Both the position numbers and the translations under genes were made by a program. A stretch of DNA of 64,000 nucleotides from Escherichia coli (lineage in GTDB: Bacteria; Pseudomonadota; Gammaproteobacteria; Enterobacterales; Enterobacteriaceae): NCBI RefSeq assembly GCF_003334315.1, contig NZ_QOWR01000012.1, one strand, 5' to 3'. The notes below the pieces were generated by a model. That model was not told the origin of the DNA and searched no databases. It saw only the letters and a program-made list of their open reading frames with translations. Positions 4,133 to 51,727 of this stretch are shown piece by piece. How positions within the stretch are numbered: the stretch's first letter is position 1; each line of letters starts with the position of its first letter.

Positions 4133-4269
4133 TTAACCTGCCAATATTGAGGATACAAACTATTTTCTTCTACCTCTAAAGGACGATGCACGCTATGCCT
4201 CCCTGATGATGTATATCAAAGTAAAACCGCCATTTTCCCTTATTCTGTAGCGAAATAGCACGATCATGA

Positions 4270-32903: not shown

Positions 32904-33053
32904 GACTCCTCCAGTGAGAAAATAGAGCAAAAAGATAAGTATAGATGCTGGAGGAGGGGCGATTTTAAATGAGAGGAATCTGGTGTGCCTCCCTTTCGGG
33001 TGAAAGGGAGGAAGGGATATTAAGCAGGTTGCTGACAACGTGCGGGCTTTTTT

Positions 33054-45218: not shown

Positions 45219-46484
45219 TCAAACATCCATGCCCAACGCTCGCTTACCGTGAATGTTGAGGTCGGCAAGCGTAAAGCGTCCTTCCCAGTTTGTTTCATAG
45301 TCCTCGCGCGGGAAGTCGCCCGGCGATGCGCCTTTTTCCAGTGCGGCCTTCACCTTGTGCGCGTAGGCAAGATTTTTCTCGCACATCGGTGCCGCAGGAA
45401 TGTACATCACGTTGCCCCAACCTTGTTGATTTTCAACGGGGGCAACGGAATGGATGACGTCGCAGTGCCACCAGACGGAGTCTCCGGCTTCGAGTTTTGG
45501 AATGCTGGTTAACGCCTCAATCAACAGTGGATGCCATTGCTCTGATACCGGCAATACTCTTCCGGGCGCTACGCCGCACAGTTCATCCTCCGGCACATCA
45601 TCAAGCAGCGGACGTAACAGTACGTACGCCATAGCTTCAGGAATGGGCACGACGTGCAGCAGCCCCTGACAAGGCAGCATATCAGAGAGCGCTGTCCAGC
45701 CCTGGAATGTCCGAAACACGGAACATTTGGTGGTGTTGTCCACCGTGTACTCTTCAACTTCCGTACGATGTGCCGCATGCCAGGGATCATATTGCGCCAG
45801 ATTGCCATTAAAGACGTTGACGAAAACGCGCTGATACGCTGGAAGCAGCCAGCGTTCCAGTGCCCCGGAGTCGGTATGCGCTCCAAGACCTTTGGAGGTC
45901 GTTCCGGGCGGACGGCGGCGGATACGGTCAGGGTAGATGACGCTCACATCCGGGTTAAACCATTGCTTTCCATCACTTTCAAATGTCCACAGACGATTGA
46001 GAAACGACTGCGCATTCGCCATTTCTTCACTCTGGCGGGCCTGCATTTGCGCCTGCGACCAGTAGATGGGGTAAATCTCGGGACGTGAAGCGCTGAGCGT
46101 CCCGAAGAAATTATCGCCGGGGCCTTTGTAGACCTCGTCAAAGCGGTTGCGGTCCAGATAGTCCAGCATCGACTGATCCCAGCCTAGCGCTTGTTCGCGG
46201 GGGAAATGGCCTTTTATCACCGCACAACCGCGACGTTTAATCTGTTCGCGCTGCTCTGCAGTAACATGACCTGCTTTGATATCGGCATAAGACAGCACCG
46301 GCCAGACGGCATCGCCCTGTGCTTTGAGTGCGTTGATTTCAGCCACTCGCGTGGCAATGTCATCGCTTAGCTGATTAAAGATCTGCTGGACGTCGCCAAG
46401 CTGCGCCCGCAGCGCGTGCTTCATCTGACGGATAGCTGCTTTGTGATCGGCAGGCAATGTGTCGCTGGTAAAAGTAGAAGCCAT
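45219..46484 (-). CDS. ybiU: DUF1479 family protein YbiU
   Basis: Start MASTFTSDTLPADHK (421 aa). Confidence 0.88.
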   Translation of the reverse strand: MASTFTSDTLPADHKAAIRQMKHALRAQLGDVQQIFNQLSDDIATRVAEINALKAQGDAVWPVLSYADIKAGHVTAEQREQIKRRGCAVIKGHFPREQALGWDQSMLDYLDRNRFDEVYKGPGDNFFGTLSASRPEIYPIYWSQAQMQARQSEEMANAQSFLNRLWTFESDGKQWFNPDVSVIYPDRIRRRPPGTTSKGLGAHTDSGALERWLLPAYQRVFVNVFNGNLAQYDPWHAAHRTEVEEYTVDNTTKCSVFRTFQGWTALSDMLPCQGLLHVVPIPEAMAYVLLRPLLDDVPEDELCGVAPGRVLPVSEQWHPLLIEALTSIPKLEAGDSVWWHCDVIHSVAPVENQQGWGNVMYIPAAPMCEKNLAYAHKVKAALEKGASPGDFPREDYETNWEGRFTLADLNIHGKRALGMDV

Positions 46485-46499
46485 AACCACCTCTCATTA

Positions 46500-46513
46500 A
46501 CTTTCATTCGAAA
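46500..46513 (-). promoter_or_regulatory. Copy A of the 14-bp motif TTTCGAATGAAAGT, 16 nt upstream of the ybiU ATG
   Basis: Plus strand actttcattcgaaa is the reverse complement of TTTCGAATGAAAGT; followed on the ybiU strand by SD gagaggtgg. Confidence 0.6.
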
Positions 46514-46635
46514 CCATTCTGATTTGCATGTGACAATATAAGTTATAAATAAGTTAATGCAAGTTTAATGATTTGATGTGATGTACAGGATGTAAAAAGA
46601 AGGGAAAACCGGAGCGCACGGCTCCGGTAGAGAGG

Positions 46636-47451
46636 TCAGCTGTTAAAAGGGGATGTGTTATCCAGCACCGCCTGAATCACATTCAGCGCGCCTTCATGAT
46701 TATTATCATCGGTAGCGTAACGGGCGATTTGTTTAATGTTTTCCGCAGCATTGCCCATCGCAAAGGAATAACGCGCCATTTTCAGCATCTCCGCATCGTT
46801 ACCGCTGTCGCCAATCGCTACCACATTTTGCGGTGACAGATCCCAGCGTTTCAGTAACCGCGAAATACCGTTTGCTTTATGTAGACCGGGAATAATCAGG
46901 TCGATAAAGCCAAAACCACTGGTGACGGGTTTCATAATGCCATCGAGCGCTAGGTGCAGTTTGTCGATCACTAACGGGATTTGTTCATCCGGCAGGTTGA
47001 GCGAAAACTTGAACAGTACGTCGTCAATCTCCTGATAATCTTTTACAGGTTTCAGGCGATGGTAGTGTTTTGCCATCAGTGCGACAAATGCTTCGGGGGC
47101 ATTTTCGCTGACATATGCACTTTGCAGACCGCAGGCGACAAAATTGAGTTGCTTATCTTTTAGCAACTCGCCAATAACAATCCGCGATTCATGTCGGGTC
47201 AGTTCGCCGTGGAACAGTTGCTTGCCATGTTCGTAAACCAGCGCGCCGTTTTCCGCGACAAAAGAGATCTCATCTTTTAGCTCAGGAAAGAACGAAATAA
47301 GCTGGTAATACTGATTACCGCTGGCGACAACGAACTCAATGCCGCGCTTTTTCAGTTCCTGATATTGCGCCATAAAACGTGGTTGGTTGTACGTTTTGGC
47401 GTCGTTAAGAAAAGTACCGTCCATGTCTGTGACGATAACTTTTACGCTCAT
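46636..47451 (-). CDS. ybiV: HAD-family sugar phosphatase YbiV
   Basis: 271 aa; N-terminal DxDGT (VTDMDGTFL) motif. Confidence 0.9.
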
Positions 47452-47521
47452 AGATGTGCTCCTGGCTCGAAAATGAAACCGTAACAGTGTAATAACAATG
47501 TGACACAGAGCACAAATTATA

Positions 47522-47535
47522 TTTCGAATGAAAGT
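47522..47535 (+). promoter_or_regulatory. Copy B of the 14-bp motif TTTCGAATGAAAGT, in the ybiW-ybiV intergenic region
   Basis: Exact 14-mer; about 70 nt upstream of the ybiV start; a CRP-like TGTGAcacagaGCACA lies at 47499-47514. Confidence 0.6.
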
Positions 47536-47596: not shown

Positions 47597-50029
47597 TTAC
47601 AGCATATGTTCAGTACGGGCGATGATATCGTCCTGAGCGTCTGGAGAGAGCGCGGTGAAGAAGGCGGAATAGCCCGCGACGCGCACTACCAGATCGCGAT
47701 ACTGATCGGGATGTTTTTTCGCCTCCAGCAGCGTCTCGCGGGAAACGATGTTGTACTGAATATGCCAGCCTTTATGCACTTCAAAGAAGGTACGCAGCAG
47801 GATCATCAGTTTCTGCTTGTCAGATTCGTTCTCCAGCGTTGCCGGATTCAGTTTCTGGTTGAGCAACACGCCGCCGAGAATCGCTGCCGTAGGCAGTTTA
47901 CCCACTGAGCCAATGACCGCAGTAGGGCCAAGATGGTCAGTACCGGAAGCCGGACTTGCGCCTTCTGCCAGCGGGGTGTGGGCTTTACGCCCGTCCGGTG
48001 TTGCCATAGTCTGCGCGCCAAACGGTACGTTAGCGGAGATAGACGACGTACCCGCGTAATAGTTGCCGCCAACCGGACCACGACCATAGCGTGGGTTATG
48101 GTACTGTTTCAGTTCGTCGATATAGGTCTGATAAGCGCGAGCCAGCAGCGTATCGACGGTATCATCGTCGTTGCCGTACTTCGGCGCACCGTTAATCAGC
48201 CGCTGACGCAGTTGCTCATGAGTCAGGCCATCGAAGTCATCCGCCAGTGCGGCAGCCAGCTGTTGCTGACCAATCGCACCCTGTTCAAACACCAGTTTCT
48301 TCACTGCCGCCAGGCTGTTGCCGAGGTTGGCAATGCCAACCTGCAGGCCAGAAACCCAGTCATATTTCGCGCCGCCTTGCTTGATACTTTTCGCTCGCTC
48401 AATACAGTCATCCACCAGCGCCGAGCAGAGAATATCGTGTACGTTCTCTTCCAGCATGGTGTCGACGACATATTCGATTTCGATTGATTTACGCGTGTAA
48501 TAACGGATTTGCGTATCCCACGCGTCCATTACTTCATCGAAATTGTTAAAGTTGCCTGCCGACAACGCTTTTTCTTGTGGCAGGAACACTTTGCCGCTGG
48601 TGGCATCACGCCCGCCTTCCAGCGCCGCCAGCATCACGCGGGCGAAGTTGATAAAGCTCATGCCGGTACAGCGATAGCCCCATTTGCCACCGACGGCGGT
48701 TTCGATACAACCAATCGCTGCGTAGTCGTAAGCGTCCTGCGGTTCAATACCGAGTTTAATAAATTCCGGGATCACGATTTCGTCGTTGTTGAACGCCGGC
48801 ATCCCGAAGCCGCAACGGATCACCTGTACGCAGGCGTCGAGGAAATCATTACTCATTCCTGCATGGTAACGCACGCTGAGGTTAGGCTGAGTGGAACGCA
48901 GGCGACCGCAGGATTCGAGGATCGCGTAAGAGAGGGGATTCACTGCATCCATTGGTTGACCATCAACCAGATTTTGTCCGCCAATGGTAACGTTCTGATA
49001 CAGCGGACTTCCCGCAGAGGCTTTTGAGTGTGAGCCGGAGCGGATCTTGTTCACTTCCAGCAGTTTCAGCCAGCAGCTATGCAGCATCTCGATGGCGTGT
49101 TCGCGATCCAGCGTCTGGTTGAGTTCAACGTCGCGGCGATAGTACGGGTAGAGATACTGGTCCATACGACCAAACGATACCGAGTGACCGTTAGATTCGA
49201 TCTGCAAAATCAATTGGATGAAGTAACACAGTTGCAGCGCCTGCCAGAAAGTCTGCGGCGGCTGGTGGGCGATAAGATCGCAGTTTTCTGCCATCGTCAG
49301 CAGTTCATCGCGACGGCTTTCGCGAGTTTCGGTAGCAGCCATTTCACGCGCCAGGGCAGCGAAACGTTCAATGTGTTCACTGACTGCCACCAGCACGATA
49401 TCAATCGCTTTCAGGAATTGTTCGCCATGTAAATCTTCCAGCACCGTCAGATTGATGCGCGAGCGACGTTCCGCTACTTTCTCACGCAGACCATCAAGAC
49501 CTTTTTCCAGCAGCAGCGGGAAATTCACCGCCAGGTGCGCATCGCCGGAGGTCATATTGCCTTCCGCTTTAATGATTCCGGTCGCCAGCAGACCTTTTTG
49601 CTCATCGGTAAACATGCCGTAGCAGCGATCCTGTACGGTCTGACCGCGCCACCACGGGCACACTTCATGCAGAACGCGTTTGTTCTCTTCGCTCACCGCA
49701 AAGCCAGCACCGGGACGATCTGCCAGATCATCAATCTCTTTTTCGATCCACGAGACAGTATATTCCGGGAAGATCGGCGCGGCGCGAACTTCGCTTGCCT
49801 GGTTGCCAATGATCAACTCATCGTGTTTGATCCAGATGGTGCGATTCGCCAGGTGATGCGCCAGTGCCAGCGCGCGACGTACCGGGATCGGCTTATCGAG
49901 ATGTTGTTGATACATCTCGGTATAGTGCTGCGCGCGCTCGGTACAGACTGGCGGTTTCACAATATGCACCAGCGCATTTTTGTGCGCTTTAATGCGGTCG
50001 CTGAGCGTGTCCAGTTTCAGTGTGGTCAT
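47597..50029 (-). CDS. ybiW: Glycyl-radical enzyme (pyruvate formate-lyase-like) YbiW
   Basis: 810 aa; C-terminal glycyl-radical signature RVAGYSAFF. Confidence 0.92.
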
Positions 50030-50034
50030 GGTTG

Positions 50035-50934
50035 TTATCCTCGTAAGGTCGCGGTTAACCCTTTCTGGCAGGCATACTGCTGGGCAAAGTCGAGCAGTTC
50101 TGGCGCATCAAGCGGTTTTTCCGGGGCGTCATAGGGCAGATTAAGTAAGTGATATTTGTTGATGCCCAGCGTGTGGTAGGGCAGAAAATGAATTTCGCCA
50201 ACGTGCAGCTCGTCGGCGGCAAAATCGGTAATGGCTTTTACAGAGGTTTCGTCGGCATTAAAGCCCTGAATCAGCGGCACGCGGATAATGATTTTTTTGC
50301 CCGCTGCGGCGAGTTTTTTCAGGTTATCCAGCACTCTGGCGGCGTTACCGTCGGTCCACTGTTTAAACGGCGCGTCGGCAACGTGTTTTAAATCGGCAAG
50401 AAACAGATCGATATAGGGCAGAGAAGGGGCGATATATTTCCACGGCACATGCAGACAGGTTTCTACCGCAGTATGAATGCCTGCCTCGTGGCTGGCTTGC
50501 AGTAGCGCCATCGCCATTTCCGGCTGCATAAAGGGCTCACCACCCGAAAGCGTTAAACCGCCGCCGCTGCGATCGTAAAACGGTTTATCGCGCAGAACGG
50601 TCGTCATGATCTCCTCAACGCTTTTCACTTCACCACACACGGTTAATGCCTGTGTCGGACAGCAGTCGGTTAACGCCGTCAGATGCTCCGGGGTTAACTT
50701 TTCCCGATGAATAAGCAAACCATTCAGCGCGCGCTCAATCACTTCCGACGCGGCCTTAGCGCACAGCTCGCAGCCTTCCAGACACAGTCGTGCGTCATAC
50801 AGCAGATCCTGCGTGCGGGCGCGGCTTTCCGGGTTCTGACACCAGCGGCAGCCCAGCGAACAGCCTTTAAGAAATACGACCGTGCGGATACCGGGGCCAT
50901 CATGGGTCGAGTAGCGCTGAATATTGAAAATCAT
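50035..50934 (-). CDS. ybiY: Glycyl-radical enzyme activating protein YbiY (radical SAM)
   Basis: CxxxCxxC (CSLGCRWC) near the N-terminus; start taken at [10 protein letters not shown] (299 aa); the ORF extends to 50961 if the upstream ATG is used. Confidence 0.88.
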
Positions 50935-50969
50935 AGTTGCCTCTCTGTTTCGTTCAAACATTAAAATAC

Positions 50970-50983
50970 TTTCGAATGAAAGT
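50970..50983 (+). promoter_or_regulatory. Copy C of the 14-bp motif TTTCGAATGAAAGT, in the ybiY-fsaA divergent region
   Basis: Exact 14-mer; here it is a perfect palindrome in context (ACTTTCgaatGAAAGT). Confidence 0.6.
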
Positions 50984-50987
50984 TAGA

Positions 50988-51001
50988 TTGATGTGCGTCA
51001 A
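50988..51001. promoter_or_regulatory. FNR-like box (TTGATgtgcGTCAA) in the ybiY-fsaA intergenic region
   Basis: One mismatch to TTGAT-N4-ATCAA; centred about 41 bp upstream of a plausible ybiY transcription start. Confidence 0.45.
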
Positions 51002-51064
51002 CTGTTCAGAGAGTTTTCCCGTGATAGTCTACATTCAGACAAAAAGTACATTTTGAGGATGGTT

Positions 51065-51727
51065 ATGGAACTGTATCTGGATACTTCAGACGTTGTTGCG
51101 GTGAAGGCGCTGTCACGTATTTTTCCGCTGGCGGGTGTGACCACTAACCCAAGCATTATCGCCGCGGGTAAAAAACCGCTGGATGTTGTGCTTCCGCAAC
51201 TTCATGAAGCGATGGGCGGTCAGGGGCGTCTGTTTGCCCAGGTAATGGCTACCACTGCTGAAGGGATGGTGAATGACGCACGTAAATTGCGTTCTATTAT
51301 TGCGGATATCGTGGTGAAAGTTCCGGTGACCGCCGAGGGGCTGGCAGCTATTAAGATGTTAAAAGCGGAAGGGATTCCAACGCTGGGAACCGCGGTATAT
51401 GGCGCAGCACAAGGGCTGCTGTCGGCGCTGGCAGGTGCGGAATATGTTGCGCCTTACGTTAATCGTATTGATGCTCAGGGCGGTAGCGGCATTCAGACTG
51501 TGACCGACTTACACCAGTTATTGAAAATGCATGCGCCGCAGGCGAAAGTGCTGGCAGCGAGTTTCAAAACCCCGCGTCAGGCGCTGGACTGCTTACTGGC
51601 AGGATGTGAATCAATTACGCTGCCACTGGATGTGGCACAACAGATGATTAGCTATCCGGCGGTGGAAGCCGCTGTGGCGAAGTTTGAACAGGACTGGCTG
51701 GGAGCGTTTGGCAGAACGTCGATTTAA
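51065..51727 (+). CDS. fsaA: Fructose-6-phosphate aldolase 1 (FsaA)
   Basis: Start [20 protein letters not shown] (220 aa); transaldolase-like fold. Confidence 0.92.

Follow-up and report, generated by a model that had tools for sequence, protein, structure and literature searches.

Gene content of the ybiY-fsaA locus

We analyzed a 64,000-nucleotide stretch of an Escherichia coli genome (contig NZ_QOWR01000012.1 of RefSeq assembly GCF_003334315.1), referred to here in its full length as the window, with a focus on a box resembling a binding site for the anaerobic regulator FNR. The box is located inside a 130-bp gap, flanked by the divergent genes ybiY on the minus strand and fsaA on the plus strand. 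The window is E. coli chromosome; a 301-base stretch around the box was matched in all of the complete E. coli genomes searched (5426/5426). The first flanking gene, ybiY (pflE), encodes a glycyl-radical enzyme activase and is followed in the same operon by ybiW (pflF), which encodes a glycyl-radical enzyme; the second, fsaA, encodes fructose-6-phosphate aldolase (Table 1).

Ma et al. 2024 (as related in PMC12441222) describe YbiW as cleaving 1,5-anhydroglucitol-6-phosphate, with 1-deoxyfructose-6-phosphate as the product; the reaction follows a glycyl-radical mechanism and proceeds only in the absence of oxygen. The enzyme was recently reported to enable the fermentation of 1,5-anhydroglucitol by enterobacteria of the gut; the compound is a human metabolite of clinical interest. 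FsaA is said to act after YbiW in the pathway.

Table 1. Genes, regulatory elements and predicted promoter features at the ybiY-fsaA locus, with related palindrome copies elsewhere in the window
Feature	Position in window	Strand	Details	Basis
ybiO palindrome copy	32993-33006		CTTTCGGGTGAAAG, two mismatches, about 90 bp upstream of the likely ybiO start	
ybiU palindrome copy	46501-46514		one mismatch, ends 17 nt before the ybiU ATG	
ybiV palindrome copy	47521-47534		one mismatch, abuts a perfect TATAAT (CTTTCATTCGAAAT-ATAAT)	
ybiW (pflF)	47597-50029	minus	glycyl-radical enzyme, downstream of ybiY in the same operon	ORF list, RefSeq
ybiY (pflE)	50035-50934	minus	glycyl-radical enzyme activase, 299 codons	RefSeq, tblastn (matches in 80 species span residues 1-299)
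Shine-Dalgarno sequence of ybiY	50940-50945	minus	GAGAGG, for the 299-codon start	sequence
Predicted ybiY transcription start	50953	minus	A; 19-nt leader, box at -41.5	inferred from the -10 position only
Alternative ybiY -10	50963-50958	minus	TAATGT, box then at -43.5	TAnnnT bases conserved across 81 sequences
Likeliest predicted ybiY -10	50960-50965	minus	TTTAAT, starts 29.5 bp from the box centre	conservation
Alternative ybiY -10	50968-50963	minus	TATTTT, box then at -38.5 (non-canonical)	A at -11, T at -7
Palindrome (motif copy C)	50969-50982		14 bp, CTTTCGAATGAAAG / CTTTCgaatGAAAG, at -16 to -29 if +1 is 50953	sequence
FNR-binding box	50988-51001		TTGATGTGCGTCAA (TTGACGCACATCAA read on the ybiY strand), centre 50994.5	sequence, weight matrix, ChIP-seq, conservation
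Putative fsaA extended -10	51022-51030	plus	TGaTAGTCT (TGnTAnnnT), hexamer 30.5 bp from the box centre	conservation
Predicted fsaA transcription start	51036-51037	plus	CA; box then at -41.5 or -42.5	inferred
fsaA	51065-51727	plus	fructose-6-phosphate aldolase, ATG at 51065	RefSeq, translation

The box matches known FNR sites and is bound by FNR

A sequence-only reading of the window had described the box as one base off the FNR consensus, and indeed it matches TTGAT-N4-ATCAA at nine of ten positions. Six one-mismatch matches to this consensus occur in the 64-kb window versus 2.58 expected, a count too weak to judge the box by, so we used a weight-matrix test instead. For this symmetric matrix, we used the ChIP-bound FNR sites of Myers et al. 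(2013) other than the box, 62 in total. With 15.86 bits, the box exceeds the training-site median of 15.56 and ranks second in the window; shuffles yield matches of its quality at 0.17 per 64 kb, and at about 0.0003 in the intergenic gap. The top match in the window is ATGATGTATATCAA (4206-4219), the known moaA FNR site, which is listed as the ybhK/moaA site at an FNR ChIP-seq peak (816004; Myers 2013, PMC3688515). Two of the window's six one-mismatch consensus matches are thereby ChIP-validated.

FNR binding at the box has already been published, by ChIP-seq and, independently, by ChIP-chip. The first study (Myers 2013, PMC3688515) lists TTGATGTGCGTCAA at 862788 for ybiY/fsaA, with a PatSer score of 14.54 and an ln p of -13.06, at an FNR ChIP-seq peak and without overlap with nucleoid-protein enrichment (its Table S6); the box is one of 63 predicted FNR sites in that study that coincide with a peak. 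The peak itself, at 862807, was obtained from all three ChIP-seq callers and is missing from both the ChIP-chip set of the same authors and an earlier ChIP-chip study (Table S5), and it remains in a Δhns/ΔstpA strain (Table S7). In the second study (Federowicz 2014, PMC3974632), Fnr ChIP-chip regions cover 862561-863006 in fermenting cultures and 862543-862976 in nitrate-grown ones; the signal is modest, at a signal-to-noise ratio (S/N) of about 4.

The accompanying expression data record no response of ybiY to FNR. Myers et al. (PMC3688515) gave ybiY as the estimated target of the peak, grouped it with peaks that have no FNR-dependent expression change in glucose minimal medium, and noted neither a known start site nor a known co-regulator (Table S9); ybiY is also not among the entries of their aerobic-versus-anaerobic differential list (Table S12). 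Expression of ybiWY and fsaA in Δfnr was likewise scored N/D in glucose medium (Federowicz 2014, PMC3974632). We nevertheless infer that ybiY transcription depends directly on FNR. A full-text literature search for ybiY together with FNR found nothing because the evidence sits in supplementary tables, and a search for pflF together with FNR found nothing useful.

An ArcA ChIP region was also reported over the ybiY/fsaA gap under nitrate growth (window 50564-51143), with fsaA annotated as 'activation' (Federowicz 2014, PMC3974632).

The FNR contact bases are invariant across genera

To examine the locus beyond E. coli, one genome per species was scanned, which yielded 80 ybiY loci, and 81 distinct upstream sequences were compared, window included. 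The genera covered are Escherichia, Citrobacter, Salmonella, Enterobacter, Klebsiella, Raoultella, Kluyvera, Kosakonia, Lelliottia, and others. Both half-sites, TTGA (51001-50998) and TCAA (50991-50988), are invariant in all 81 sequences. The six inner positions vary, with the E. coli base kept in 32-75% of the sequences, such that the half-sites across the whole set can be written TTGAY and RTCAA. The distance from the box centre to the ybiY ATG stays within 60-65 bp in every sequence. A functional class II FNR operator would be expected to show just this combination of constrained contact bases, an unconstrained central spacer, and a fixed spacing to the -10 element.

The gene on the other side of the box is less constant. 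fsaA is found upstream of ybiY in 63 of the 80 species and is absent from there in the remaining 17 (loci L017, L019, L022, L034, L037, L047-L049, L051, L056, L058, L059, L064, L065, L069, L071, and L076), 16 of which have a co-directional moeB at this place. The box, the neighbouring palindrome, and the -10 block are present in every one of these 17 species. Since the box is retained in these species, it serves ybiY, and a role as an fsaA-only site is ruled out. The fsaA-less loci include Salmonella enterica subspecies, Klebsiella, Raoultella, Phytobacter, Trabulsiella, and some others; where moeB is present, it lies 150-1256 bp upstream of ybiY. The presence of fsaA at the moeB-ybiY junction reflects either insertion or loss.

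Geometry of the ybiY promoter and choice of start codon

The sequence-only reading had further proposed that the box is centred about 41 bp from a transcription start that would give ybiY a leader of roughly 19 nt. Arithmetically, this geometry holds: with TTTAAT (50965-50960) as the -10 element and the predicted +1 at 50953, the box centre falls at -41.5 and the leader is 19 nt long. The AT-rich block TATTTTAATGT holds three overlapping candidate -10 hexamers, TTTAAT, TATTTT, and TAATGT, of which TTTAAT is the likeliest. It matches the consensus at five of six positions and is the sole register conserved everywhere, being unchanged at a fixed offset in 70 of the 81 sequences with every position at least 95% conserved; at -11, however, where almost all promoters have an A, it carries a T. 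TATTTT is the best-scoring hexamer in E. coli by base frequencies (our own estimate), with its A at -11 conserved in 72% only and a distance that would need a spacer of ~14 bp. The third candidate, TAATGT, has lost its T in K-12, where the promoter is active and a C stands at -7 of this hexamer. The window strain departs from K-12 MG1655 at two bases in the leader and promoter of ybiY (plus strand, window base first: G to A at 50947, A to G at 50958), the second of which is responsible for the loss of the T at -7 of TAATGT in K-12.

The base 41.5 bp from the box centre (50953) is an A in all 81 sequences. Downstream of the -10 block, an AYGMAA element (ACGAAA, 50948-50953, minus strand) is conserved. 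Its sequence is similar to the palindrome's right half (TCGAAAG), and the two are 22 bp, or two helical turns, apart. The conserved A and AYGMAA could be an auxiliary half-site for the repressor YciT, discussed below, rather than a start signal. On sequence grounds, the placement of the box in the class II zone of ybiY appears robust, and the exact value of -41.5 is a prediction. A generic promoter scan returned only TTGAAC-16-TATGAT (50930-50957, minus strand), a match overlapping the start codon of ybiY; we regard it as probably due to chance because other genera do not conserve its -35.

Translation of ybiY very likely begins at the start codon of the 299-codon frame. The earlier preference for this start over the longer ORF is borne out by the Shine-Dalgarno sequence and by conservation, and it agrees with RefSeq. 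A Shine-Dalgarno-like sequence precedes the 299-codon ATG in all 81 sequences, and tblastn matches all begin at residue 1 of the 299-aa YbiY. In contrast, the ATG nine codons further upstream that would open the 308-aa ORF is found in four of the 81 sequences only (the window and three other Escherichia), and 62 of the 81 lack an in-frame ATG extension of any kind. If transcription starts at the predicted 50953, then the upstream ATG (50961) would be outside the transcript.

The palindrome between box and -10 is a probable YciT operator

A 14-bp repeat, named motif copy C in the sequence-only reading, had been placed between the box and the predicted -10. We find it there, at 50969-50982, with the box on one side (50988-51001) and the AT-rich -10 block beyond it on the other. 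In 70 of the 81 sequences, the palindrome CTTTCATTCGAAAG recurs without change at the same offset from the box. Its core is CTTTC-N4-GAAAG, and copies with at most one mismatch occur upstream of ybiY, ybiV, and ybiU, the ybiV copy directly next to a perfect -10 hexamer (Table 1). A fourth copy upstream of ybiO, CTTTCGGGTGAAAG, lies in the middle of the ybiO ChIP-exo interval of Gao et al. 2021 (844783-844814 in NC_000913.2, corresponding to window 32983-33014).

These copies match the targets of the DeoR-type regulator YciT, both those seen by ChIP-exo and the genes derepressed in a yciT deletion. YciT ChIP-exo sites were reported at ybiY (S/N 45), ybiV, and ybiO, and deletion of yciT raised expression of ybiY by log2 7.7, of ybiU by 7.0, and of fsaA by 1.8 (Gao et al. 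2021, PMC8464067). Expression of ybiY in the deletion strain was still weak, with a baseMean of 24 versus 6489 for ybiU (Gao et al. 2021, PMC8464067). Provided that these cultures were aerobic, such weak expression is consistent with a promoter still lacking a required activator. Altogether, the recurrence of the motif at YciT targets, the ChIP-exo data, and the recovery of YciT by affinity mass spectrometry (see below) make the palindrome a probable YciT operator. If +1 is at 50953, a repressor bound to the palindrome, at -16 to -29, would block polymerase.

Some DeoR-family operators are built on CTTTC repeats, e.g., that of AgaR. The recurrence of CTTTC-N4-GAAAG within one sugar-phosphate regulon (ybiU, ybiV, and ybiY) resembles this arrangement; the difference is that the assignment to YciT is indirect, and that the published ChIP-exo interval lies ~100 bp off the palindrome. 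Specifically, the ybiY ChIP-exo site of Gao et al., given in NC_000913.2 coordinates, corresponds to window 51073-51100, 111 bp from the palindrome. The Gao ChIP-exo intervals are displaced by 100-170 bp to the high-coordinate side of both the ybiY copy and the nearest (ybiU-proximal) copy.

Upstream of ybiU (window about 46115-47199), there is a very strong ArcA ChIP region, with an S/N of 49.9 and annotated as repression (Federowicz 2014, PMC3974632). The YciT regulon may thus have two branches, one shut anaerobically by ArcA (ybiU, encoding a DUF1479 protein) and one activated by FNR (ybiYW).

The Reg-Seq promoter is anaerobic and has an unnamed activator

Anaerobic induction of ybiY, as had been expected of an operon for an oxygen-sensitive enzyme, is supported by a published reporter. 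Integrated into the genome, the ybiYp reporter was active only anaerobically, with or without nitrate (Reg-Seq preprint, 10.1101/2025.05.13.653802). In the same work, DNA-affinity mass spectrometry with ybiYp bait recovered YciT, from aerobic lysate only. YciT is described there as a repressor overlapping with the footprint of the polymerase; it is placed near '-5' of a start predicted by computation and 'about 100 bases' from the Gao ChIP-exo site. An activator is reported without a name 'around -20' of the same predicted start, and the word FNR appears nowhere in the preprint (10.1101/2025.05.13.653802).

The centres of the palindrome and the box are 19 bp apart, versus about 15 in the Reg-Seq wording. 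Taking the Reg-Seq positions as they are worded, this spacing and the distance to the Gao site place the activator footprint on the box. It is therefore likely that the unnamed ybiYp activator is FNR. The text of the Reg-Seq supplement was searched for a ybiY sequence or coordinates, and none were found.

A proposed class II FNR operator gated by YciT

With good but not complete confidence, we interpret the box as a genuine FNR operator of the ybiY-ybiW promoter, of class II and gated by YciT, which may also serve fsaA. Under anoxia, [4Fe-4S] FNR would dimerize and bind TTGA-N6-TCAA at a position centred ~41.5 bp ahead of the ybiY start. Bound in this way, FNR would take the place of the missing -35 element and recruit RNA polymerase to the weak -10 block, i.e., class II activation. 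YciT on the palindrome, at -16 to -29, would occlude RNA polymerase until a sugar phosphate of the pathway, presumably, releases it. FNR activation combined with the YciT block would make the ybiY promoter an AND gate that responds to the lack of oxygen together with the presumed sugar phosphate. Such a gate would suit an oxygen-labile glycyl-radical enzyme that degrades 1,5-anhydroglucitol-6-phosphate. The same FNR dimer may also serve the divergent promoter of fsaA, the next enzyme of the pathway, from about -42.

In E. coli, class II FNR-activated promoters such as narG, nirB, dmsA, and pflB P6 carry their site at -41.5. The ybiY promoter is like these in that the box sits over the -35 region, no -35 is recognizable, and the -10 block is ~29.5 bp from the box centre; its target, ybiYW, is an anaerobic, oxygen-labile enzyme system, and FNR occupancy is published. 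It is unlike them in that the ybiY start is predicted, the -10 has a T at -11, and there is no Δfnr effect in glucose medium.

This last difference may be explained by the repressor. YciT repression probably masks the effect of Δfnr in glucose medium, which would account for the unchanged ybiY expression in the two Δfnr transcriptome studies. There is precedent in Category 4 of Myers et al. (2013; PMC3688515), where FNR is bound and a second repressor hides the fnr phenotype, as Fur does at feoABC. The ybiY box is similarly bound by FNR without an fnr-deletion phenotype, and the masking repressor would be YciT. Unlike the Category 4 promoters, ybiY/fsaA was filed by Myers et al. under Category 5, with no known co-regulator, because YciT was unknown in 2013.

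The box itself is already known. What is added here is its phylogenetic footprint and promoter geometry, the assignment of the palindrome in the promoter spacer to YciT, the possible sharing with fsaA, and FNR as the likely Reg-Seq activator. We found no paper connecting the FNR ChIP peaks, the YciT ChIP-exo and RNA-seq data, and the anaerobic Reg-Seq promoter. A class II FNR box with a YciT operator in the spacer gives a simple, testable account of all three data sets. As such, this is an incremental clarification of a known FNR site and not a new kind of element, ordinary but sound.

Possible sharing with fsaA and other readings of the box

On the fsaA side of the box, an extended -10 element is conserved among the fsaA-bearing species (T51022 in 92%, G51023 in 95%, T51025 in 94%, A51026 in 97%, and T51030 in 100%). 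A CA dinucleotide, the predicted fsaA start, follows at a fixed offset in 57 of the 64 fsaA-bearing sequences. Between the box and this extended -10, indels are almost absent, while the fsaA ATG lies anywhere from 65 to 77 bp from the box centre.

These features raise the possibility that one FNR dimer is shared by back-to-back class II promoters, with the box at -41.5 for ybiY and at about -42.5 for fsaA. This would extend the YciT-gated ybiY operator rather than replace it, and we hold it tentatively, at somewhat below even chances. TGnTAnnnT recurs at its fixed offset in about 57 of the 64 fsaA-bearing sequences and is followed by the CA just as often; its spacing to the box is free of indels, whereas the segment from -10 to ATG varies by 12 bp. 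Mild derepression of fsaA in the yciT deletion (log2 1.8) and the reported position of FsaA after YbiW in the pathway point the same way. On the other hand, an extended -10 promoter can work without an activator, the effect of Fnr on fsaA was N/D in Federowicz et al. and Myers et al. assigned ybiY as the target, and the box is kept in the 17 species without fsaA.

A known arrangement of this kind is found at the divergent malX/malI promoters, where a single CRP site lies at about -41.5 and -43.5. The ybiY-fsaA gap is like malX/malI in having a symmetric site midway between back-to-back promoters, with -10 elements 29.5 and 30.5 bp to either side. It differs in that the activator is FNR, not CRP, that the fsaA extended -10 may not need an activator, and that both starts are predicted. 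The full combination, in which one FNR dimer drives both ybiYW (from -41.5) and fsaA (from about -42.5), YciT gates the ybiY side, and FNR is the Reg-Seq activator, is a shade more doubtful than sharing as such; if true, it would amount to an oxygen-AND-substrate switch controlling how 1,5-anhydroglucitol is broken down by radical chemistry.

Conversely, FNR might bind the box silently or architecturally in E. coli, with anaerobic induction coming solely from relief of YciT repression. The Reg-Seq authors ascribe the anaerobic activity to YciT alone, and a silent site would agree with ybiYW being unchanged in two Δfnr transcriptome studies. We consider this reading improbable, as selection on the eight FNR contact bases and the fixed -10 distance in all 81 sequences is hard to explain without function. 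The Reg-Seq data themselves include a footprint of the activator type that lies upstream of the YciT site, and YciT, which came from aerobic lysate only, is not known to sense oxygen.

Two further readings do not involve FNR. The box could be a plain sigma-70 -35 hexamer of ybiY with a coincidental likeness to FNR sites, given that TTGACG on the ybiY strand matches TTGACA at five of six positions (the sigma-70 model behind the Reg-Seq predicted start probably used this hexamer). We rejected TTGACG as a -35 and regard a merely coincidental FNR likeness as very improbable: the hexamers 16-18 bp downstream (CATTCG, TCATTC, or ATTCGA) fall within the palindrome and do not resemble a -10, a -35 element would leave the equal invariance of the symmetric TCAA half unexplained, position 5 varies between T and C as in FNR half-sites, and FNR occupies the box in vivo.

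CRP sites are distinguished from FNR sites by one base pair, GTGA/TCAC versus TTGA/TCAA, and the discriminator bases of the box are of the FNR type in the window and throughout the 81 species sequences. Recognition by CRP or another CRP/FNR-family protein instead of FNR is hence scarcely credible, even though the two kinds of site are alike in architecture and other genera have weak CRP-like motifs ~49 bp upstream of the box, since the half-sites are never GTGA/TCAC and the ChIP signal comes from FNR-specific immunoprecipitation with Δfnr controls (Myers 2013, PMC3688515).

The CRP-like motif, (T/C)GTGA-N6, has its centre 49-51 bp from that of the box on the upstream side and occurs in 36 of the 81 sequences, all from genera other than Escherichia (among loci L009-L081). 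It sits at about -90.5 for ybiY, an arrangement that resembles FNR-plus-CRP promoters such as ansB. Its E. coli counterpart is a degenerate TGTAC-N6-TCTGA (window 51035-51050).
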